Below, one piece after another: positions 9,411-23,902 of a DNA stretch of 30,079 nt. The notes under the pieces were generated by a model. The model saw only the letters and a list, made by a program, of their open reading frames with translations. It was not told where the DNA came from and did no database searches. The stretch is from a virus, in the IMG/VR virus record IMGVR_UViG_3300045988_012809, positions 1 to 30,079 of that record. One strand, given 5' to 3'. How positions within the stretch are numbered: position 1 is the stretch's first letter; the number at the start of each line of letters is the position of its first letter. Made by a program: the position numbers and the translations under genes.

Positions 9411-11459
9411 TCACACGTAATGGAAATTAATCACCCTAACGGTTTCCCGTGCCGCCGCGTTCGGGTCAAGAGCGTTCACCGTGATAGGCGCGTTCACACG
9501 CGGGACACTAGTCGCGTTCATGGGCACCGGGCTAGACATGACAGGCATGGGCGCCACGATGGACGAAGGAAGAAGCGAGTCCACCATGTTTTCCACCGGA
9601 CGAGTGGCCGCACGCGTGTTCTCCGTCACGCCACGGCCAAGACCAGCAGGAATCATCCGACCGATTTCACGGTCGAACACCTTCGACGGGGAGTGGATGC
9701 CCAGCAGGCTTTTGGCGCCGTCGATGATACCGCCAACAGCGTCCTTGACTGCTGAGATGGCACCGCCGATGGCGTTCTTAATGCCGTTAACCAGACCTTG
9801 AATAATGTTCTTGCCAGCGCTGAGAAGCCATGATCCGGCTCCGCTGAACACGCCCATGATACGGCTCGGGATGCTGGTGATGAAGCTCATCATGGAACTA
9901 ACGCCACTGCTGACAGCACTGGTGATACCACTCCATGCGCCGCTTACCGCTCCCCTGATACCGTTCCACACACTGCCGAAAACACCTCTGATACTGTTTA
10001 ACACGCTTGAGATAACGCCCAACACTGCATTAATGGCACCAGAAACGATACTTTTGATACCGTCCCAGACGCTGGAAACGATATCCTTGATTCCCTTCCA
10101 TACCCCAGACCAATCACCGTTAATCGCGTCCAATACGGTGGTGATTATCGCGTTGAGAACGTTCATAACCGAAGTGACAACCGTCTGAATGAATGGGAAC
10201 ACCGCGTTGATGACGCCTTGAATGTAACTGCCACAGATTTGGAACGCTGATTGGATGGCTGGTAGCACGGCTTGAATCAACGTAGCGATGTTATTAATCA
10301 CCGGTGTTACCGCAGTCGCAATAACGCTCATAGTTTGCATGATGTTGCTAACTACCGTCGCCAACACGGGGGCAATGGTCTGAATCGCGGCCATGATTAC
10401 AGGCATGATGGCATTGCCTAGATTCTGCAAAGCACCCATGAGAGGCTGAAGCGCCGGAAGCAACTGCGACTGCACGACTCCTACAACCGGTTGGAACGCT
10501 GTCTGGAACGTTGTGCCGATCCGCGAGAGAGTCGGGCCGATAGTTTGCACCAGTCCCGTAAACACGCCGCTAAGACCACTGATGCCTTGCGCCAACATAC
10601 TAATGCCGGATGTCAGCGGGCCTTTAAACTGGTCAAGAATCGTCGTACCCACGCCAACCACGGACGCTTCCAGATTACCCATCGCACCTTCGATAGTGCT
10701 GGTGCTGGTAGCGGCTTCCTTTGCGGCATCCGTCATACCCAAGTTCATTATGGCTTGGTTGAATTCATCCGCGCTGATCTCGCCTTTTTCCATCGCCTTG
10801 CGGAAGTCCCCGGTGTAAGCCCCGTTCTTCAGCATGGCTTCCTGAAGTTTGCCGGATGCACCGGGGATGGCGTCGGCCAACTGGTTCCAGTTCTCCGTGG
10901 TGAGCTTGCCTGCGCCAGCGGTCTGCGTAAGCACCATACCCACCGAACTGAAAGTTTCCGCGTTACCACCGGCTACAGCGTTCAAATTGCCAGCGGCTTC
11001 GGCCAGTTTGTCGAATCCTTGTACACCGTTCGCCGCAAGCTGCGCGGTCACGTTGCGAATATCGCTGATGCTGTAAACGGTCTGGTCGGCGTAAGTCTGA
11101 GTGCTGGCGGTGAGAGCGTCAATAGTCCCGGTATCCAGTCCGGCAAAGTTCAACGTGCTTTTGAACTTGTCCGCCGAATCGGACGCCTCCACAATATCGT
11201 CAGTAAGGTTGCCGATGGCGTCCACAGCCATACCGATCCCAGAGGATACGAGACCGCCAACGGCACCGGCGACTACACCGAACTTTCCGAACCCGCTGGA
11301 AGACTTGCCAGCCGACTTGGCAGCGTTACCCAGCGCCCCATCAGCCTGTCGCGCCGACTCTTCAATCTGATGGCTACCCGATTGAATATCCTTGACGCCA
11401 GCGTTCCAATCGCTAGTGTTGATTTCTGCGTCTAGGGTCAGTGTCGAGTCTGCCATCAC
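9411..11459 (-). CDS. Tape measure protein
   Basis: 682 aa and Ala/Gly/Ser/Val-rich, with long helical and TM-like repeats (GIKSIVSGAINAVLGVISSVLNSIRG...). It follows the chaperone ORFs. Starts with GTG at 11459 or ATG at 11456. Confidence 0.85.
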   Translation of the reverse strand: MMADSTLTLDAEINTSDWNAGVKDIQSGSHQIEESARQADGALGNAAKSAGKSSSGFGKFGVVAGAVGGLVSSGIGMAVDAIGNLTDDIVEASDSADKFKSTLNFAGLDTGTIDALTASTQTYADQTVYSISDIRNVTAQLAANGVQGFDKLAEAAGNLNAVAGGNAETFSSVGMVLTQTAGAGKLTTENWNQLADAIPGASGKLQEAMLKNGAYTGDFRKAMEKGEISADEFNQAIMNLGMTDAAKEAATSTSTIEGAMGNLEASVVGVGTTILDQFKGPLTSGISMLAQGISGLSGVFTGLVQTIGPTLSRIGTTFQTAFQPVVGVVQSQLLPALQPLMGALQNLGNAIMPVIMAAIQTIAPVLATVVSNIMQTMSVIATAVTPVINNIATLIQAVLPAIQSAFQICGSYIQGVINAVFPFIQTVVTSVMNVLNAIITTVLDAINGDWSGVWKGIKDIVSSVWDGIKSIVSGAINAVLGVISSVLNSIRGVFGSVWNGIRGAVSGAWSGITSAVSSGVSSMMSFITSIPSRIMGVFSGAGSWLLSAGKNIIQGLVNGIKNAIGGAISAVKDAVGGIIDGAKSLLGIHSPSKVFDREIGRMIPAGLGRGVTENTRAATRPVENMVDSLLPSSIVAPMPVMSSPVPMNATSVPRVNAPITVNALDPNAAARETVRVINFHYV

Positions 11460-11785
11460 AAGTCCTTCATAAGATTATTGATGATACTGGTTATCCTCTG
11501 GTCGCCATGTTTGGATAGCGCGGCGGCGATGCAATTGAACGTCATTTGGTATTGTTCAGCCAGACGCCGCCGTTTGATACGGCGCCCCTCACGAAGCAGT
11601 CTCATCATAAGGTCGGGATCAACATTGTTTTCCAACACGTCGCGGATAGCCTGCCACCCATACACATCACCCAGTCCAGCGAGGATATGAACGCTCGGAA
11701 GCGGTTTGTTGGACGCCTCTTTCCGTTTGTAATCCTTCATCGCCTCCCGTTCGACGGGAGTGAGCAGACTATCCCACGACCTCAT
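11456..11785 (-). CDS. Second tail-assembly-chaperone-position protein
   Basis: Lies between the first chaperone ORF and the tape measure. Basic C-terminal half. The ATG directly follows the upstream TAA, in the same frame. Confidence 0.5.
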   Translation of the reverse strand: MRSWDSLLTPVEREAMKDYKRKEASNKPLPSVHILAGLGDVYGWQAIRDVLENNVDPDLMMRLLREGRRIKRRRLAEQYQMTFNCIAAALSKHGDQRITSIINNLMKDL

Positions 11786-12139
11786 TTATTCGCCCTTGAT
11801 GTCAACCGTGATGTTCCTCGCCATAAGCCCGGACAACGCGGTCATGGCACGCTGATAGGCGAGACCGCTACGCTCCCGCGTCTTCACCTTCCACTCGGAG
11901 AATTTATCAGCGGGACTCATAAGCGATTCCACCAGCGGGAAAATAATCTTTTCTGCGGTTTCCAAAGTCTCACGGTTCGCCCCGCCAGCTCTTAGCCTGT
12001 CAATCGTCTCCGCATTATCCAAGATCGTGAGCACATCCTTCGAGCCGAGCGGGCGCATGGTATACACAGTGCCGTCAAGTTTGACGGTGAGGGTGCGGAA
12101 CGCTTCACGGGTGTCGATGCTCAAAACCGGGGTAGTCAT
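11786..12139 (-). CDS. Tail assembly chaperone (gpG-position)
   Basis: First ORF after the major tail protein, 117 aa and acidic. The call is positional. Confidence 0.5.
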   Translation of the reverse strand: MTTPVLSIDTREAFRTLTVKLDGTVYTMRPLGSKDVLTILDNAETIDRLRAGGANRETLETAEKIIFPLVESLMSPADKFSEWKVKTRERSGLAYQRAMTALSGLMARNITVDIKGE

Positions 12140-17066: not shown

Positions 17067-17207
17067 TTAATGTTCTGCTCCCCATAGTAGCACGATGCGG
17101 TACGTGTCCAAACCTTTGCAGTTCGGGCATTTCAACGTGACCGTGGTGTTGCGGGCGCAGGAGCCTAGGTAGCGTCCGCAACGTTTGCAATGGATGTCAT
17201 ATGTCAT
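17067..17207 (-). CDS. 46-aa Com-like zinc-ribbon protein (not in the ORF track)
   Basis: Hand translation: MTYDIHCKRCGRYLGSCARNTTVTLKCPNCKGLDTYRIVLLWGAEH. Contains two CxxC pairs. ATGA overlap with the portal stop. SD GAGGTGG. Confidence 0.55.
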   Translation of the reverse strand: MTYDIHCKRCGRYLGSCARNTTVTLKCPNCKGLDTYRIVLLWGAEH

Positions 17208-19291
17208 GATTCGACCACCTCGTAATCCTCATAGCACCGGCAGTTGGGGTGTCCGTTCGGTGTTTGCATACTCTCGAAGTTGTTCACGTAGGTTCTGCCG
17301 CCTATTTCTACGCTGGCGTTCTCAGCCATATACGTGTCATCCAATGCGATTCGATTGCCTTCCATGTGATTGCAGAATTCGCATACTTTTTCGTCGCCGC
17401 TGGTGCGCCAAACCTTGGCTAGTCGGATGCCGAGTGTTTCGCTGAGGTTGCGGGCGCTGTACAAGCTGCCGAGCCGTTGGGATTGCACAGTCTCACACCG
17501 GGCAATCAGTTCGGCGTGTTCGTTGCTCATGCGTTCGAGCGCTTCTCGGAGGTGTTCTGCGTCCCACTGGTCCACGTCGGCCCGGTTCAACAGTTCGAGC
17601 ACGTCGTCCGTAATGGTCTTGCTGGTGGACTTGGCGATGCTCCGCAAGTGTTCCACGTAGGCTTCACGCACGGTTGCGGGGAGTTCCGTCCAAAAGTAGA
17701 GTTGCCGCCAATCATCTGCGGTGTATCCCTCGATATTCACGGCGATGGAGCTTTCGGGGTGGACTTCAGCCCACATGGTAATGACCTGTTCCAGTTCGTA
17801 GCCGGTACGGCGTGCGTAGGCTGCGAGGTTGGTCATCAGTTCGTCTTCCACGTCGTTTATCCACTGGTCGCCGATGGCTTCCAGATCGTCGCGTAGCCCG
17901 TTCTTGGAGCGGCGTGCCATGCGGATTACGCGGTTCACGTAGGTGCGAGTGGCGGGGATGATACGGGTTTCGGTTGCCGTTTCCTGCGATTTGATATTAC
18001 GGCTATACCGTTTTGCGGCTACTGGGATACTTAGTGTCGGGGCCTGCTGGTGCAGGTCAAGACGCTTATACGAGTCGGGGAGTCCGAGCGCGTCCACGGC
18101 AGCCTCCAAACTGGCCCCCATGTTCAAAAGCTGGGTCAGCGAGTCGACACGTACCTTCTGTGTGTCGGCCTGCACCTTTGCTATGTCGGTTTGGGACGGC
18201 AGGTTGAGATCGAACGTGATGCCGTAGCCGAGTCCTCCGGTGATGCGGTCAAGTTCGAATTGCCATTTATCCCACACCGTCATGCACAACGGTTTAAGGG
18301 TGTTTTCAATGAACGCGCGTTCCGCCTGTTCGGCGTTGGCGTAGGTTTGCCCGTTATCGATGCCTCGAATGATGTCCGGGACTGCGAGCGCGTTCGACAG
18401 TCGGTTGTTTACCACGTCGTTCACGGTCTGCAAGTCTAGACTGTCGTTGGCGTTCTGGAACGGTACCCATACGAGTTTGCTGGTGGTGCTGGGCTTATGG
18501 GTCATGGGGTCAACCGGGATCATGTTATAGACGATTCCGTTGTTGTTGCCTGCACCTCGGAACGTGCTTTCGAGTCGGTCGCGGTTGCGCTGGAAGTCCT
18601 CAGTGTTTTCCGACACGATGCCGAGCATTCCAGCGGGTACGGCGTTGTTGCCGAAGAAGCCACGCTCATAGTCGGCGATCATATCGTCCACGTTCGCCCA
18701 CTTCTTCACCGTCATGGCTGGTGCGATGCCGCGCGTCGGGTCGTTGGGGTGCTGGCTGTAGCTGAGGGCGATTGTTTCGTTTCGGGAGAATTCGTAGGCT
18801 TGTTCGCCGTCGCCCAAGTCCATAGTGACGCGATGGTACCAGTCCGAGCGCGTGGAATTATACTGGCGACTGTTCGACGGTAGGAGCGTGTATCCGATGA
18901 TGTTCGTTGGGGTGATGTCTCCGCCCGGCCCGTTGCTTGTCCAGATCAGAACATCCAAGTGGGATTGGGTGAGGATGCTGGCGCAAACGATCTTGAGGAA
19001 CTCCAAGCACGAATAGGTGTCGTTGGGCGCGTAGAGTGCGGCCAGTGGTGCGGGGGGCGGGTCGATACGGCGGTTTTCTGAGTCCACGGCGTAGGGGATT
19101 ACCGTGCTGAACCTTTGCGCGATGGCGTTGACGTAGGGGAACACGTTGTCGTAAGTATCGTGCATGGGGATGGTGTTGCCGCCCATTGGCTGCCACATGT
19201 TCCCGCCCATTGGTGTGGGGGACGTGCTGGGCGCATGGTTACGGTCGAAAGCGCTCATAAACCCGTCACGGAGATTGTTCAGCAGGCTCAC
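17204..19291 (-). CDS. Portal protein fused to a MuF / SPP1 gp7-like minor head protein domain
   Basis: 695 aa, located directly after terL. The C-terminus KVCEFCNHMEGN...TPNGHPNCRCYEDYEV is the MuF-family signature. Confidence 0.85.
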   Translation of the reverse strand: MSLLNNLRDGFMSAFDRNHAPSTSPTPMGGNMWQPMGGNTIPMHDTYDNVFPYVNAIAQRFSTVIPYAVDSENRRIDPPPAPLAALYAPNDTYSCLEFLKIVCASILTQSHLDVLIWTSNGPGGDITPTNIIGYTLLPSNSRQYNSTRSDWYHRVTMDLGDGEQAYEFSRNETIALSYSQHPNDPTRGIAPAMTVKKWANVDDMIADYERGFFGNNAVPAGMLGIVSENTEDFQRNRDRLESTFRGAGNNNGIVYNMIPVDPMTHKPSTTSKLVWVPFQNANDSLDLQTVNDVVNNRLSNALAVPDIIRGIDNGQTYANAEQAERAFIENTLKPLCMTVWDKWQFELDRITGGLGYGITFDLNLPSQTDIAKVQADTQKVRVDSLTQLLNMGASLEAAVDALGLPDSYKRLDLHQQAPTLSIPVAAKRYSRNIKSQETATETRIIPATRTYVNRVIRMARRSKNGLRDDLEAIGDQWINDVEDELMTNLAAYARRTGYELEQVITMWAEVHPESSIAVNIEGYTADDWRQLYFWTELPATVREAYVEHLRSIAKSTSKTITDDVLELLNRADVDQWDAEHLREALERMSNEHAELIARCETVQSQRLGSLYSARNLSETLGIRLAKVWRTSGDEKVCEFCNHMEGNRIALDDTYMAENASVEIGGRTYVNNFESMQTPNGHPNCRCYEDYEVVES

Positions 19292-19349: not shown

Positions 19350-20609
19350 CTAGCAAACGGATACGTCCCAAGATGGCAGCTTCGGCGGTTCGTAGCAGGC
19401 AAGCAATACGGCGTCCGCTAGATCGGGGCTGCCCAAGTTCTCCCGGTCTTTGTAATCCTGTTTGCTTTCTATCTGTCGTTGGTTCCTGCTGGTGATTTTC
19501 CACCGTCGCGTGGTCAATTCGCTTGAGAGCTTGACGAAGTCATCAAGATTAGGGTTGATGCTCAATGATGGCAGCATGGTAGCAAAGTCGAACCATAGTT
19601 CGCTGGCAATATTCGGATACTGTTGGTCTTTGGCCTTACCGGCGTAGTTGATGGCGTCAACGGGCAGGCCGTTTGTCTTGAGCAGGTCTGTTAATCCTCC
19701 GCCTACACCGGTATCGTCTACGCGGATGGCTACGGGCTTGTACTGGTCTGCCCGGAGTTTGATGCGTTCCGCCGTGTCCACGATACTGCTGTGCGTCCAC
19801 GATTCCAAGATGCTGATTCGGTTGCCCTGTTTGATGCAGAGCGCTGTGCGGTCGTTGCCGTATCGGGCCACGTCCACGCCGAACGTCACGAGCCCGGTCA
19901 ATGGTTTGCGTTGTACGGCTTCGTTTATCATGGTGTCGCTGATTAGCTGGTTATCAGTGTCGGAGTATGGCAAGCCTAGCCAGATGTGAGCATAGTCCGC
20001 TGACTGTTGGTCGGCGTGGATCATGTTCAACACGTCTTGGCTTAGCAGGCGGCGCACGTCGTTGTAGGTGGTGTGCCAGTGGCATGTCTGGCGGCGGCGT
20101 TCCTCCGAGTCGCCCGTGATGAAGTACGTCCATACGGGATCATGTGAAGTTAGCGGGTTCCAAGTGAAGATCAGCGTGGAATTGGGTCGGCGGATAGTCG
20201 GGATAAGCGTGGTCAGGCTTTCCTTGCTGATGGTCTGCGCTTCCTCGACCCAACACACGTCCACGCCCTCGATGCTCTTGATCGATTCCAGATTATTGTG
20301 CAGTCCTCGGAAGATGAACATGCTGCCGTTGATGTGGCGGATTGCGTCGCGCGTGACCTCGAACCCCTTGACTCCGAACGATTCAATGATGTCGGCCAGC
20401 AGCTTATGCACGGAGTCGGTGATACTGTTCTGGAATTCGCGGGCGCACAATACCGTGATGGGTTGGGTGGCGGCGCGGAGTATGAGACTCTGCGCGACGC
20501 TTGTACTTTTGCCGCTGGCTCGTCCACCGGAATAGCAGTAATACCGGTATGGTGGCGTCTCCGAGTGGAGCCACCACCATAAGTCACGGTACGGTTTAGC
20601 TATCTTCAT
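19350..20609 (-). CDS. terL: Terminase large subunit (Terminase_3 / PBSX-type)
   Basis: Walker A YSGGRASGKST, VCWVEEAQ (Walker B), and a C-terminal RNase-H-like nuclease region (VDVARYGNDRT...VDDTGVGGG). Confidence 0.9.
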   Translation of the reverse strand: MKIAKPYRDLWWWLHSETPPYRYYCYSGGRASGKSTSVAQSLILRAATQPITVLCAREFQNSITDSVHKLLADIIESFGVKGFEVTRDAIRHINGSMFIFRGLHNNLESIKSIEGVDVCWVEEAQTISKESLTTLIPTIRRPNSTLIFTWNPLTSHDPVWTYFITGDSEERRRQTCHWHTTYNDVRRLLSQDVLNMIHADQQSADYAHIWLGLPYSDTDNQLISDTMINEAVQRKPLTGLVTFGVDVARYGNDRTALCIKQGNRISILESWTHSSIVDTAERIKLRADQYKPVAIRVDDTGVGGGLTDLLKTNGLPVDAINYAGKAKDQQYPNIASELWFDFATMLPSLSINPNLDDFVKLSSELTTRRWKITSRNQRQIESKQDYKDRENLGSPDLADAVLLACYEPPKLPSWDVSVC

Positions 20610-21100
20610 CCGTGCTTCCTGATAACGAAACTGGCGGTCTTCACACGACGCGACGTTTTACTGAAATTAGGCTTGTGCTTACGTGCGATTTCTACCGCGC
20701 GCTTCTTGTGAAAAATGTTGATATTGTTCCGGGTTAGCTTCCAATCGTCGTGGTGCAGCAGTGCGTGTTTCATTGCAATGTTCGAGGTTTGCAGGAAGCA
20801 ATCATATTTGATGCTCACATGCTTGGCTACCGTTGTGGCCAGCAGTCTCCCGAGCCCGATCCCCTGCCAGTCCGGGTGAATGACAATCCGATGTATGCGA
20901 GCCATTGCAGTACCGTTACGTCTGGGCATGATGATTACCGCGCAGAAGCCGACAGCCTCCCCGCAGTATTTGACCTCCCAACATCGGGCGTTGTTCTGTA
21001 TCTTGCCTGTCAGATAATGATATCGCTTAAACTTTGCCCACTCGCTTCGGTCGCATCGTTCGACGGTGAACCGTCGTTGAGCGGGCTTGAACGTTTTGGG
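20606..21100 (-). CDS. GNAT acetyltransferase domain in the -1 frame relative to the ATPase; it has no start codon that would give a complete domain
   Basis: The frame is open from 21115 to 20606: FTVERCDRSEWAKFKRYHYL...RCWEVKYCGEAVGFCAVII...IHRIVIHPDWQGIGLGRLL (acetyl-CoA Q/RxxGxG motif). The only ATG (20929) has no SD and would truncate the fold. Confidence 0.6.
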   Translation of the reverse strand, partial: PKTFKPAQRRFTVERCDRSEWAKFKRYHYLTGKIQNNARCWEVKYCGEAVGFCAVIIMPRRNGTAMARIHRIVIHPDWQGIGLGRLLATTVAKHVSIKYDCFLQTSNIAMKHALLHHDDWKLTRNNINIFHKKRAVEIARKHKPNFSKTSRRVKTASFVIRKHG

Positions 21101-21720
21101 TCGATCATCCCCATATCATTCGTGGAATACACCCAATCGGGTTGCAACCAGTCGAGTATATCGGAATGGCAGGTTACCGCGATGAACCGGAGTCCGGACG
21201 TGCGTTTGATGTGCTTGTGCAATGCAAGGCAGAGGTTATAGGCCACGTTCCGGTCAACCACGCTGGTGAACTCGTCGTAGGCCACGGGATTATCAGGTGT
21301 CGCGGAAAGCAGTGTGTAGGCCAGATCGGCACGCATTTTCTCACCGTTGCTCAGCACCGTGTAGGGTTTCAGCCATGACGGGACGCTGGAGAAACCGAGC
21401 GAGGTGAACATTCGTGTTATCTCCCCGACCGTGGGGCCTTGGGGCATGTCCATTATCACGCTGGGATTACGATGCTCAGGCAGTGGGATGAGACAGTCGC
21501 CGAACAGTTCGCGGGCGATGGTAGTTTTCCCTGTTCCGCTGGCTCCGACAATGGCGCCTATCTGCCAACTGTCAGGCAGGATTATCTCCCCTGTGAAGTG
21601 TTCCGTTACCTCGGGAACTGTGTAATCGTAGTCGGAGCGTATGGCGTTAACACGGAAGTTGTCTACCGGCGGCGTACTACTCCGAGTAATATCAATCTTC
21701 AGATGGTGATGATCTTGCAC
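21010..21720 (-). CDS. Soluble ABC-type ATPase (no membrane domain)
   Basis: Walker A GASGTGKTT, ABC signature LSNGEKMR, Walker B VAYDEFTS, H-loop VTCHSD. GTG start with SD AGGAGGG at 6 nt. Confidence 0.8.
   Translation of the reverse strand: MQDHHHLKIDITRSSTPPVDNFRVNAIRSDYDYTVPEVTEHFTGEIILPDSWQIGAIVGASGTGKTTIARELFGDCLIPLPEHRNPSVIMDMPQGPTVGEITRMFTSLGFSSVPSWLKPYTVLSNGEKMRADLAYTLLSATPDNPVAYDEFTSVVDRNVAYNLCLALHKHIKRTSGLRFIAVTCHSDILDWLQPDWVYSTNDMGMIDPKRSSPLNDGSPSNDATEASGQSLSDIII
21094..21100 (-). promoter_or_regulatory. Candidate -1 ribosomal frameshift heptamer C_CCA_AAA
   Basis: The zero frame reads gaC CCA AAA cgt. A -1 slip reads CCC AAA ACG and continues into the GNAT frame. A 6-bp hairpin lies at 21061-21076, 17 nt downstream. 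Confidence 0.4.
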
Positions 21721-22253
21721 GAATATCCCTCCTGTACAAGCTTGTCGAACACGGTTTCGAGTTCGCTTTCATTGTCCACGTTGACTTGGATAGCGTGCTT
21801 ATCGTCGATATCGTTCAAACCTTCATCACTGTCATGGTCTTCCATGTCAAGAGATGGCAGGTCAAACCCATAGAAGTCCATATCGAAGTCAGTCGTGAGG
21901 TCTTCCAGTTCCACGTCGAGCATATCCGCGTCCCACCCGGTGTTCATGGTGAGCTGGTTGTGAATGAGGGTGTAGGCTCGGCGTTGCGAGTCGGTCAGAT
22001 CATCAAGACAGATTACCGGGCATTCCTCAATATTAAGTTTCTGCAAGGCGAGTACCCTGCCGTGGCCTTCCACGATGATCGGGGTACCGTCCTTGTCATG
22101 CCAGACGGCCACAGGGTCGTTCATACCGAACTCACGTATACTTGCGGCGATCTGTGCCACCTGCTCGTCGGGATGCTGTTTCGCGTTCCGAGCATAGGGA
22201 ATCAGGTCACTGGTCTTCATGGTTTGGACTTGCAAACGTGGTTTACTCATCAT
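21699..22253 (-). CDS. ParB N-terminal (ParB/Srx) nuclease-like domain protein
   Basis: LIPYARNAKQHPDEQVAQIAASIREFGMNDPVAV...IIVEGHGRVLALQKLNIEECPVICLDDLTDSQRRAYTLIHNQ is the classic ParBc pattern. Confidence 0.85.
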   Translation of the reverse strand: MMSKPRLQVQTMKTSDLIPYARNAKQHPDEQVAQIAASIREFGMNDPVAVWHDKDGTPIIVEGHGRVLALQKLNIEECPVICLDDLTDSQRRAYTLIHNQLTMNTGWDADMLDVELEDLTTDFDMDFYGFDLPSLDMEDHDSDEGLNDIDDKHAIQVNVDNESELETVFDKLVQEGYSCKIITI

Positions 22254-22639
22254 TCGCTATTCTTCTTGTTCTCGGGATTATCGTCGAACGGTTCCAACAC
22301 GATACGCGGCGGCTCGTAGCCGGTCACGTTCACATCGGTGGACTGGTGGGGTTTCCCGTCCAAACGGTCGATCAGATCGGTAGCGACTTTCGGGTTCTTC
22401 TCCGCGTCCACAATATGCTTGACCGCGATACGTTGGATCATGGTCAGACTGGGGTCTTTCGCTTTCTCAGCGAATTCTTTTGCGGATAGTTTCCCGTATT
22501 CGCGTATCCACCGGGTCGGGCTGGTGTCTTTAGTCCATGTGCCTCGGTCTTGCGGGCGTTCTTGGAAGCCGCCTTTGCCGGTTGGATTGTTGACGCCGCC
22601 GGTGATTCTGCCGTGGGTGTCTCGGGTTACGTTGCTCAT
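22250..22639 (-). CDS. terS: Terminase small subunit candidate
   Basis: Contains NPTGKGGFQERPQ and LIDRLDGKPHQS, motifs remembered from small-terminase families. It heads the packaging module. Confidence 0.55.
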   Translation of the reverse strand: MSNVTRDTHGRITGGVNNPTGKGGFQERPQDRGTWTKDTSPTRWIREYGKLSAKEFAEKAKDPSLTMIQRIAVKHIVDAEKNPKVATDLIDRLDGKPHQSTDVNVTGYEPPRIVLEPFDDNPENKKNSE

Positions 22640-22814: not shown

Positions 22815-22976
22815 TTAGGCGAGGATGTAGGTTATGAGGAGTTTGAGTAGGGCGATGGTGCCGGTGGTGGTGAGTAGGGTGGTTAGGGTGATGAGTAGTC
22901 CGCCGAGGATGCGGCCTAGTTTGTAGCCGGGGGTTGTGGTGTTGCGGAAGTAGTCGAATTCGTTTGGTTTTTTCAT
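22815..22976 (-). CDS. 53-aa single-pass membrane peptide (not in the ORF track)
   Basis: Hand translation: MKKPNEFDYFRNTTTPGYKLGRILGGLLITLTTLLTTTGTIALLKLLITYILA. ATGA overlap with the RusA stop. Confidence 0.45.
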   Translation of the reverse strand: MKKPNEFDYFRNTTTPGYKLGRILGGLLITLTTLLTTTGTIALLKLLITYILA

Positions 22977-23902
22977 TGGTTCTTTTCCCATGTGATTGTG
23001 AGGGATACGCCGGTGGGGGTGTTGTCGGCGTATCGTTTGTGGCTGATTACGTTGGTGATCTGGCAGTCGTCATGCCAGATGTGGGTTTCGGTGATGGCGT
23101 CGTATAGGGCGCGTTGGAGTTTGTCGATGTCTGGTTTGACGGTGGGGTGTTTTCGTTTTCTTGGTGGGATGGTTTTGGGGCGGGGTAGGTAGAACGTGGT
23201 TTCTACGGTCACGTATGAGTCGTGGGGGATGGTGGGAGCCTGGTGGTTGAGGATGGTGTCGCGTACATGGTCGCGCCACGGGCGTTCTTTTTTGTCCATT
23301 GGTATGAGGCGGGTGACTGGTTTGCCGGTGGTGCGGCTCCTGCCGGTGATTGGACGGTAGGAGCCTTTACTTGCGGGTATGCCGGGGATGAACAGTTTGA
23401 ACGAGGATGGTTTGCTGGTTATTGGTTGATCTCCTTCTAGTGTTTGACTCACGGTCGGGTCGTAACTCCAGTCAAGTCGTACAGGCACAGGATTGTGCCA
23501 CGTGTTTTCCGTTGTCTTTCCTTGTATTGTCTTGACTGTGAGTCGTATGGCGTTGTGGTATTCGGTTCTTGACGCGCAGTCAGAATCCCGTTGAGGGTAG
23601 GGGTCGGGTTTCAACGCCTCGTAGGACGTTTTCGTCCCGGCTTTGGTCTCGGCGTCCGTGGGTGGCGTGTTGCGGTCGCGCAGGTGCGGTGGGTCGAGCA
23701 TGATCATGCGGAACGTCTCGTCAGGGGATGGCAGGTCGCGGTGGTCCATCAGCGTGTCCGGCTTGACCTTGAATCTGCGTTCGTCACATAGTTTCCGACT
23801 TTCGTCGCGCATGTCACCGGAGAGTATACGGTTGTCTGACTTGTCGGAATAGAATATTCGTCCGCCGCAGGCTGGGTCGGGAACAGGTTGGTATGCGCTC
23901 AT
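22973..23902 (-). CDS. rusA: Fusion ORF: N-terminal fragment of a small SAM-dependent methyltransferase (ends at DPPH) plus a C-terminal RusA Holliday-junction resolvase
   Basis: N-terminus: ACGGRIFYSDKSDN...KVKPDTLMDHRDLPSPDETFRMIMLDPPHL. C-terminus: FKLFIPGIPASKGSYRP...TVKPDIDKLQRALYDAIT...IWHDDCQITNVISHKRYA (RusA motifs). Confidence 0.75.
   Translation of the reverse strand: MSAYQPVPDPACGGRIFYSDKSDNRILSGDMRDESRKLCDERRFKVKPDTLMDHRDLPSPDETFRMIMLDPPHLRDRNTPPTDAETKAGTKTSYEALKPDPYPQRDSDCASRTEYHNAIRLTVKTIQGKTTENTWHNPVPVRLDWSYDPTVSQTLEGDQPITSKPSSFKLFIPGIPASKGSYRPITGRSRTTGKPVTRLIPMDKKERPWRDHVRDTILNHQAPTIPHDSYVTVETTFYLPRPKTIPPRKRKHPTVKPDIDKLQRALYDAITETHIWHDDCQITNVISHKRYADNTPTGVSLTITWEKNQ

Follow-up and report, generated by a model that had tools for sequence, protein, structure and literature searches.

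A candidate programmed −1 ribosomal frameshift joining an ABC-type ATPase to a GNAT acetyltransferase domain in a phage late operon

Overlapping reading frames at the ATPase-GNAT junction

The window analysed in this study is the whole 30,079-nucleotide stretch of the IMG/VR virus record IMGVR_UViG_3300045988_012809. On its minus strand, an open reading frame (ORF) for an ABC-type ATPase is followed by a frame encoding a GNAT acetyltransferase domain. The GNAT frame lies at −1 relative to the ATPase frame and is open from 21115 to its TGA stop at 20608..20606, and the two overlap over 21115..21010. The overlap holds a candidate site for programmed −1 ribosomal frameshifting, the slippery heptamer C_CCA_AAA. 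The features of the junction are as follows.

21010..21720, minus strand: zero-frame ORF for an ABC-type ATPase, 236 residues, 26.1 kDa; GTG start at 21720, TGA stop at 21012..21010
21116..21118, minus strand: upstream TGA stop of the −1 frame; a shift can yield the fusion only on its 3′ side
21094..21100, minus strand: slippery heptamer C_CCA_AAA with the zero-frame codons CCA (21099..21097) and AAA (21096..21094), in the context gaC CCA AAA cgt
20606..21094, minus strand: −1-frame coding part, consisting of the linker TFKPAQR and a complete GNAT domain (fusion residues 210-371), as indicated by Pfam, AlphaFold and colinearity with fused homologues
20927..20929, minus strand: first ATG in the GNAT frame (M264 of the fusion), an implausible start and the first ATG, GTG or TTG of that frame in the ORF listing

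The heptamer is the only in-frame X_XXY_YYZ within the 237-codon ATPase ORF. XXXYYYN sequences occur in the window at 0.002 per position, and 11 in-frame heptamers were counted across its 19 long ORFs. Therefore, a chance occurrence of the heptamer is unlikely. A −1 shift at this site would give the product ...MGMIDPK-TFKPAQRRFTVERC..., a fusion of 371 residues and 42.3 kDa. The zero-frame tail of the ATPase, that is, the last 27 residues after K209, is read from the overlap and is not conserved as a protein. No Shine-Dalgarno-like purine run is present in the 24 nucleotides upstream of the ATG at 20929 (GGCTTCTGCGCGGTAATCATC). A start at this ATG would also remove the elements b1, a1, b2 and most of b3 of the GNAT fold, because M264 sits within b3. 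A GGGGA sequence at 21112..21108, 8-12 nucleotides upstream of the heptamer, could be a Shine-Dalgarno-like enhancer of the dnaX or IS911 kind. Little weight is put on it, since it is missing in the relatives L006 and L020.

A preliminary description of this DNA had already proposed the exact −1 relation, the heptamer in its codon context, a GNAT frame that lacks a start until 20929, an ATG there that would truncate the domain, a GNAT fold beginning at about 21070 (FTVERC), and two products of 236 and about 371 residues. All of its sequence statements were rechecked on the minus strand, and these points agreed with the ORF listing, the structural model and the computed products.

The ATPase half carries the Walker A motif GASGTGKT, the signature LSNGEKMR, the Walker B motif YDEF and the H-loop CH in this order. 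To place the two halves in their family, the inferred fusion was aligned with 27 true fusions (alignment A1), and the four motifs are invariant or nearly so in it. A profile of the ATPase found ABC nucleotide-binding domains in the PDB at E 3e-14, and Foldseek also finds such domains. The score against Pfam ABC_tran (19.9 bits) does not reach the gathering cut-off of 25. By its motifs and profile matches, the ATPase is best described as a divergent soluble branch of the ABC-type ATPases. The database name 'ABC transporter' is doubtful, because no evidence for a transporter role of this ATPase was found. The GNAT half of the inferred fusion scored 32.8 bits against Pfam Acetyltransf_1, for which the cut-off is 20.7, and the acetyl-CoA loop Q/RxxGxG/A is present as QGIGLG before helix a3.

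The inferred fusion is colinear with the 27 true fusions, and its junction DPK/TFKP falls on their Lys-rich linker (Q/V)KK(N/K)RP. An AlphaFold model of the fusion, built from A1, has a mean predicted local distance difference test (pLDDT) score of 85.6; in it, an ABC-like domain precedes a GNAT fold that is complete. In the model, b1 (FTVERC) covers residues 218-223 and begins at 21070, a1 covers residues 225-234, and the elements continue through b7 at residues 360-367. The complete fold (b1-a1-a2-b2-b4-a3-b5-a4-b6-b7) is predicted only in the frameshift product, and b1 and a1 are encoded upstream of any start codon. The best whole-length fold match was the fused homologue of Leptospira phage LE4, with a template modelling (TM) score of 0.80. 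The fusion also matches phrog_11143, a family of unknown function, from end to end (E 5.8e-76, fusion residues 21-360 on profile positions 12-343 of 357).

Thousands of homologues were retrieved from the protein database. Among the best 120 listed, the majority are single two-domain ORFs of 350-380 residues with 41-48% identity. The closest proteins among the matches listed, at 92, 91, 70 and 59% identity, are all ATPase-only with 232-236 residues. With E values up to 1e-30, a search of 1.84 billion cluster representatives gave 227 relatives. The best 150 of these 227 include many ATPase-only proteins (218-240 residues), the ParB-ATPase fusions P0140 and P0253, and the ATPase-ATPase-GNAT protein P0137, in which two family-type ATPase domains in tandem are followed by one GNAT. 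Several relatives of 560-620 residues carry an additional N-terminal domain of about 230 residues.

Reading frames, coding constraint and RNA structure in homologous loci

A set of 166 homologous loci was collected from annotated phages, contigs encoding the closest proteins, IMG/VR and GTDB genomes, and the GNAT frame relative to the ATPase was set for each locus by local tblastn. The preliminary description had envisaged either single in-frame ATPase-GNAT ORFs or a conserved heptamer among homologues, and both were found. The GNAT domain is fused in frame in 125 loci and lies at −1 in 41, and none of the loci is at +1. In 40/41 of the split (−1) loci the frame switches at the ATPase/GNAT junction. 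The exception is L108 (Nonomuraea turkmeniaca NZ_VCKY01000297.1), in which the shift lies inside the GNAT domain and without a heptamer. An assembly error or an ordinary mutation that inactivates the gene would account for it, and it roughly indicates the background rate, 1 in 166 loci. Two loci classed as fused (L037 and L135) showed apparent internal stops, and these were traced to over-extension of the alignment upstream of the true start. Neighbour joining on the ATPase domain placed the split loci in three groups, namely a clade of 31, a Bacteroidota pair and a single locus. The clade of 31 contains the window clade together with Lactococcus P335, S. pyogenes 315.4, Streptococcus MismyG and Oenococcus phages and a Coxiellaceae contig. 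The phages that keep the −1 arrangement have hosts among the Actinobacteria (with the host inferred), Firmicutes, Bacteroidota and Gammaproteobacteria.

In-frame X_XXY_YYZ heptamers were counted from the end of the ATPase domain to the start of the GNAT match. They are present in 29/35 distinct split junctions versus 2/115 fused ones (Fisher p = 9e-23). C_CCA_AAA is identical in 19 distinct junctions, and within the window clade GAC CCA AAA stays constant across 57-94% ATPase identity. Other lineages have T_TTT_TTT, T_TTT_TTC, A_AAA_AAA, A_AAA_AAG or A_AAA_AAC, and the Oenococcus phages have A_AAG_GGC. Locus L168 (160..1838; P0140) encodes a ParB_N-ATPase fusion followed by an A_AAA_AAA junction, and its −1-frame GNAT opens exactly at the A run. 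In six relatives (L007, L009, L011, L015, L018 and L022) a −1-frame TGA abuts the heptamer on its 5′ side (aT TGA CCC AAA). Therefore, the shift cannot happen earlier than the heptamer. It cannot happen much later either, because (F)KP three codons on is conserved.

Substitutions were counted among 14 sequences, each with at least 90% ATPase identity. In the 600 nucleotides upstream of the heptamer, the counts at zero-frame codon positions 1/2/3 are 36/13/158. In the overlap, the counts at −1-frame positions 1/2/3 are 2/3/9, and in the rest of the GNAT they are 77/65/130. The third-position excess thus moves from the zero frame to the −1 frame, which indicates that coding selection changes frame at the heptamer.

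An ATG, GTG or TTG in the −1 frame before helix a1 is absent in 26/33 distinct split junctions, and the few that are present are not conserved. The independent GNAT initiation that the preliminary description had held against itself is thus not borne out by the homologues. Because no −1-frame start is conserved, gene callers begin the second gene at varying internal codons. In Streptococcus phage phiNIH1.1 (L166/L167 1237..1688), the region that corresponds to the GNAT part is a 450-nucleotide stretch without an annotated gene, and the record marks the ribosome-binding sites of the adjacent genes. Elsewhere an internal TTG or ATG serves as the annotated GNAT start, which gives a truncated hypothetical protein, and the ATPase part bears the name 'ABC iron siderophore transporter'.

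The RNA downstream of the heptamer is predicted to fold, and its elements are as follows.

21087..21093, minus strand: 7-nucleotide spacer CGUUCAA between the heptamer and the stem
21036..21086, minus strand: predicted stimulatory stem-loop, with an 8-base-pair closing stem formed by GCCCGCUC (21086..21079) and GAGUGGGC (21043..21036), enclosing an inner hairpin
21061..21076, minus strand: inner 6-base-pair hairpin cgacgg-ttca-ccgtcg, 17 nucleotides past the heptamer, not conserved

The minimum free energy of the stem-loop is −27.8 kcal/mol (z = −2.1). The 8-base-pair stem is 100% paired in 14/14 distinct aligned sequences (alignment A2). Its three changes in A2 are one-sided and keep the pairing (C-G to U-G twice and G-U to A-U once), and no double changes occur. 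The relatives L007 and L023 have the same 5′ arm and a different 3′ arm 13 nucleotides closer, and between the two, a double change exchanges G-C for A-U. A homologous stem is found in the Streptococcus and Lactococcus phages and in L026, where CCCCCAC pairs with GUGGGGG 5-7 nucleotides past the slippery run and the 3′ arm lies on a conserved Trp codon.

The preliminary description had pointed to the inner hairpin and to its unusually long spacing. The hairpin and its spacing were recovered. As a stimulator it fared less well. Only 84% of its cells in the alignment are paired, it is broken in the 70% relatives L006, L020 and L021, and it is weakened in L008, L010 and L022. The stimulator is likely to be the conserved outer 8-base-pair stem at 7 nucleotides rather than the inner hairpin, as judged from the predicted pairing. 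A spacer of 7 nucleotides is normal for such an element (5-9 nucleotides).

Folding of the 75 nucleotides downstream was also compared with dinucleotide shuffles. The mean z is −1.99 for the split junctions (n = 33) and −0.06 for the fused ones (n = 116), with a Mann-Whitney p of 4e-11, or 1.6e-4 when one representative per lineage (17) is used. When duplex energy was calculated for the stem placed at the conserved Trp codon, split and fused loci could hardly be told apart; GC-rich fused genes pair by chance too. The shuffle-normalised z-scores were therefore used. An Rfam search of the region gave no match.

Programmed frameshifting, rival explanations and genomic setting

The frame arrangement, the heptamer and its conservation, the switch in coding constraint and the predicted conserved stem are observed at this locus and its relatives. 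Taken together, they make it very probable that the gene uses a programmed −1 ribosomal frameshift at CCCAAAA, by which a phage late-operon ATPase of 26 kDa would be extended to an ATPase-GNAT fusion of 42 kDa. From these comparisons we infer the shifting of ribosomes, its efficiency and the roles of the two products. Most ribosomes would read the zero frame to the stop at 21012..21010 and release the ATPase with its short unconserved tail. A fraction would pause with tRNA-Pro on CCA and tRNA-Lys on AAA, and the stem-loop 7 nucleotides on is the likely cause of the pause. While the stem holds the ribosome at its entrance, the two tRNAs would slip in tandem, tRNA-Pro from CCA to CCC and tRNA-Lys from AAA to AAA. 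After re-pairing, decoding would resume at ACG in the −1 frame and give the fusion ...IDPK-TFKPAQRRFTVERC.... The site would thereby set a fixed ratio of the ATPase alone to the ATPase-acetyltransferase, and the lineages with in-frame fusions would make the long form only. In E. coli, C_CC.A_AA.A is counted among the shift-prone heptamers and is weaker than C_CC.A_AA.G (PMC4066793).

Several points weigh against programmed frameshifting at this junction. X_XXA_AAA is far weaker than X_XXA_AAG in E. coli, and the host here may be an actinobacterium (PMC4066793 for the E. coli data). The Streptococcus and Lactococcus phages have CAG GUU UUU C, in which GUU_UUU_C is a non-canonical slippery site; the U_UUU tetramer contained in it is shift-prone (PMC4066793). 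In L021 (IMGVR_UViG_3300045988_044552) the heptamer is altered to the non-canonical C_CTA_AAA, with a −1-frame ATG just upstream. In the close relative L012 (IMGVR_UViG_3300045988_016992) a C-to-T change creates a −1-frame TAA eight codons past the heptamer; the change leaves the stem paired (U-G). The covariation score of A2 is not above that of shuffles, and the covariation support is modest with all changes one-sided. In the AT-rich lineages with very long A or U runs (L027, L029 and L034) no convincing structure was found; transcriptional slippage, or the run as such, may be what they depend on.

Four other explanations were weighed. If an A had been lost in sequencing or assembly, the true gene with five A's would be a plain in-frame fusion. 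Homopolymer indels are a common error type and most distant homologues are in-frame fusions, but 19 distinct junctions share the four-A heptamer and the −1 arrangement, and they come from ENA, Logan and IMG/VR assemblies that represent at least nine independent samples or assemblies. The clusters P0001-P0003 of ATPase-only proteins (236/235 residues) hold 68, 1533 and 164 member sequences, and errors should also give +1 cases and scattered positions, none of which were seen. The missing fifth A, which the preliminary description had kept in view, is thus excluded for practical purposes, and we regard such an error as next to impossible. A decaying pseudogene, in which a frameshift mutation has inactivated the GNAT half and left the ATPase functional, has a precedent in L108, a genuine off-junction frameshift within the family, and the nonsense codon of L012 would fit it. 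Against this, the −1 ORF of 169 codons stays open and keeps the GNAT motifs QGIGLG, YHY and W across lineages down to 47% ATPase identity, the third-position bias follows the −1 frame, and it is the split junctions in particular that are rich in heptamers and structure. The split loci are grouped in one large, old clade and two others. Decay of the GNAT half is exceedingly improbable on these grounds.

A run of about 9-10 A or T is long enough for bacterial RNA polymerases to slip. Transcriptional slippage, in which the polymerase adds one A and a subset of the mRNA encodes an in-frame fusion without any ribosome shift, is suggested by the runs of this length at the junctions of the related lineages L027, L029, L034 and L168. 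The runs in the window itself, A4 and C3, are much shorter than those known to support slippage, and the zero-frame X_XXY_YYZ fit and the conserved stem at 7 nucleotides are both specific to ribosomal frameshifting. We consider slippage at this junction very improbable. Two separate genes would result if the GNAT were initiated alone, at a non-canonical codon or by termination-reinitiation at the ATPase stop. The P335 and Oenococcus phages have annotated TTG or ATG starts near the ATPase stop with a 4-nucleotide overlap, and L020 and L021 have a −1-frame ATG just upstream of the heptamer. These sporadic starts are not conserved, however, and starts near the zero-frame stop lie past b1 and a1 and would give a truncated fold. 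The lack of any start before M264 in the window, and before helix a1 in most split junctions, also speaks against separate initiation. In addition, the residues from the heptamer to the zero-frame stop are conserved in the −1 frame. An independent GNAT gene is accordingly judged improbable, and programmed −1 frameshifting at CCCAAAA is preferred.

The window is a siphovirus-type phage or prophage of about 30 kb with a GC content of about 54% and its late genes on the minus strand. The late genes run in the order of a RusA-like gene, two small ORFs, a ParB N-terminal-domain gene, the ATPase ORF, the GNAT frame and the terminase large subunit, followed by a portal-MuF fusion, the major capsid protein, the tape measure protein and a GH25/LysM endolysin. 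The two direct neighbours are as follows.

21699..22253, minus strand: ParB N-terminal-domain gene, 184 residues (Pfam ParB_N, E 3.3e-6; phrog_620, E 2e-47)
19350..20609, minus strand: terminase large subunit (Pfam Terminase_3, E 1.5e-38), directly downstream of the GNAT frame

The end of the ParB-like gene overlaps the GTG start of the ATPase by 22 nucleotides (21699..21720, minus strand), and this overlap is also found in the P335, 315.4, Oenococcus and MismyG phages. The GNAT stop shares ATGA (20606..20609, minus strand) with the ATG of the terminase. Through these two overlaps the ParB-like, ATPase, GNAT and terminase genes are tightly coupled. No recognisable small terminase gene lies between the GNAT and the large subunit, and the ORF of 129 residues at 22250..22639 has no family match. 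The mechanical ORF at 22973..23902 (minus strand) has 309 residues and matches RusA only in residues 188-303; the RusA gene of the relative L005 encodes 149 residues. The N-terminal 180 residues of this ORF may be an over-extension or a separate gene. At 17204..19291 (minus strand) a single ORF of 695 residues encodes the portal protein and a Mu-F-like domain, as in the relatives L005 and L006.

A tail-chaperone frameshift was sought in the window as an internal positive control for the heptamer, and none was found. Two small genes of 117 and 109 residues (11456..12139, minus strand) lie upstream of the tape measure gene in the same frame and are split by a TAA and then an ATG (ggc gaa TAA ATG agg). 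With no −1 overlap and no usable in-frame heptamer, this pair apparently lacks the usual G/GT tail-chaperone frameshift.

A near-identity DNA search of the phage collection gave no match. The window clade is known from metagenomes only. The GTDB genome scan found no close relative, the best ATPase identity being 51%. The presence of a WhiB gene in the close relative L005 (92% ATPase identity) suggests an actinobacterial host.

Possible function and comparison with known systems

ABC nucleotide-binding domains act as ATP-bridged dimers. Since such domains dimerise and a covalent ATPase-ATPase-GNAT homologue exists (P0137), the frameshift may build asymmetric dimers. P0137 suggests that an ATPase dimer with one GNAT is a workable unit, as a mixture of the short and long products would give. 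The ParB-ATPase fusions P0140 and P0253 would likewise tie the ParB-fold neighbour to the ATPase. As a guess, the system could be an ATP-driven dimer of nucleotide-binding domains with one or two acetyltransferase domains, working beside the ParB-like neighbour near DNA packaging. In streptococcal phages, an ASCH-domain gene lies directly after the ATPase-GNAT gene (L002 2589..2966, L004 2608..2976 and L167 1689..2066). ASCH proteins include N4-acetylcytidine amidohydrolases, and this neighbour hints at a theme of nucleic-acid acetylation. We propose tentatively, with slightly more doubt than belief, that the split loci represent a previously unrecognised, multi-phylum recoding family, in which the frameshift sets the ratio of the products and yields asymmetric single-GNAT dimers that act with the ParB-fold protein at the onset of packaging.

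To our knowledge, most conserved −1 frameshifts described in phages concern tail assembly chaperones, with a few cases elsewhere. If true, the present case would be a widespread, conserved −1 frameshift in a non-structural phage enzyme gene. It would correct a systematic annotation error, in which the gene appears as an 'ABC transporter' and a truncated 'hypothetical protein' or an unannotated gap; the mis-annotated carriers include S. pyogenes 315.4, phiNIH1.1, Lactococcus P335 and Oenococcus phages. Because the family has both frameshifted and fused versions, it offers a natural comparison for the purpose of a fixed short-to-long ratio. It would also supply diverse bacterial slippery sites, several with a downstream stem-loop, from hosts beyond E. 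coli, and it flags the ParB-like and ATPase-GNAT pair beside the terminase as a possible functional unit. The literature searched, including a recoding review (PMC5009743) and the PRFect paper (PMC10885494), yielded no description of a frameshift or a function in this family. The mechanism itself is classical. Its use in the ATPase-GNAT family was found undescribed in the literature searched, and the comparative support for it in the sequences is strong.

The junction resembles known systems in several respects. The tail assembly chaperone genes G/GT of lambda and other tailed phages reportedly use a −1 frameshift, as Levin in 1993 and Xu, Hendrix and Duda in 2004 are said to have described. 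Like G/GT, the window has a late-operon pair with a startless −1 downstream ORF, the shift keeps its place and the slippery sequence differs between phages, and a short product and a C-terminally extended fusion would be made at a fixed ratio. Unlike in G/GT, the gene family is an unrelated one, a GNAT enzyme domain is joined to an ATPase, a conserved stem-loop lies at 7 nucleotides, and many relatives (125/166 loci) have resolved into a plain in-frame fusion. The dnaX gene, with its tau and gamma products, also has a −1 shift in an ATPase gene at a heptamer with a 3′ hairpin, and its two products share the ATPase domain. The dnaX frameshift site includes an upstream Shine-Dalgarno-like element. 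The shifted product of dnaX is the shorter one, whereas here the shifted product is longer and gains a domain.

The orfA/orfAB genes of the IS3 family of insertion sequences (IS911, IS3 and IS150) combine a heptamer with a 3′ stem-loop or pseudoknot and sometimes an upstream Shine-Dalgarno-like element (PMC4066793). As would be the case here, their frameshift fusion carries the catalytic domain and motifs of moderate efficiency are tolerated. Their product is a transposase and their heptamers are mostly A_AAA_AAG or A_AAA_AAA (PMC4066793), in contrast to the phage ATPase-GNAT with C_CCA_AAA.

Among solved structures, only TmcA/NAT10 (PDB 2zpa) could be aligned to both halves in matching order, a P-loop ATPase and then a GNAT. 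Its ATPase is helicase-like and not ABC-type, and its extra domains (DUF1726 and tRNA-binding) are absent here. With a TM score of 0.28-0.30 and 11% identity, membership in the TmcA/NAT10 RNA cytidine acetyltransferases was rejected, and the likeness is an architectural analogy only. A further comparison is offered by the in-frame phrog_11143 proteins, such as the putative GNAT protein of Leptospira phage LE4 and gp75 of Arthrobacter phage EastWest. Unlike the window, their genes are one ORF in which junction heptamers are rare (2/115) and the downstream RNA has no excess structure. They belong to the same family with the same domain order, and they have the same neighbours as the window, a ParB-like gene upstream and a terminase nearby.

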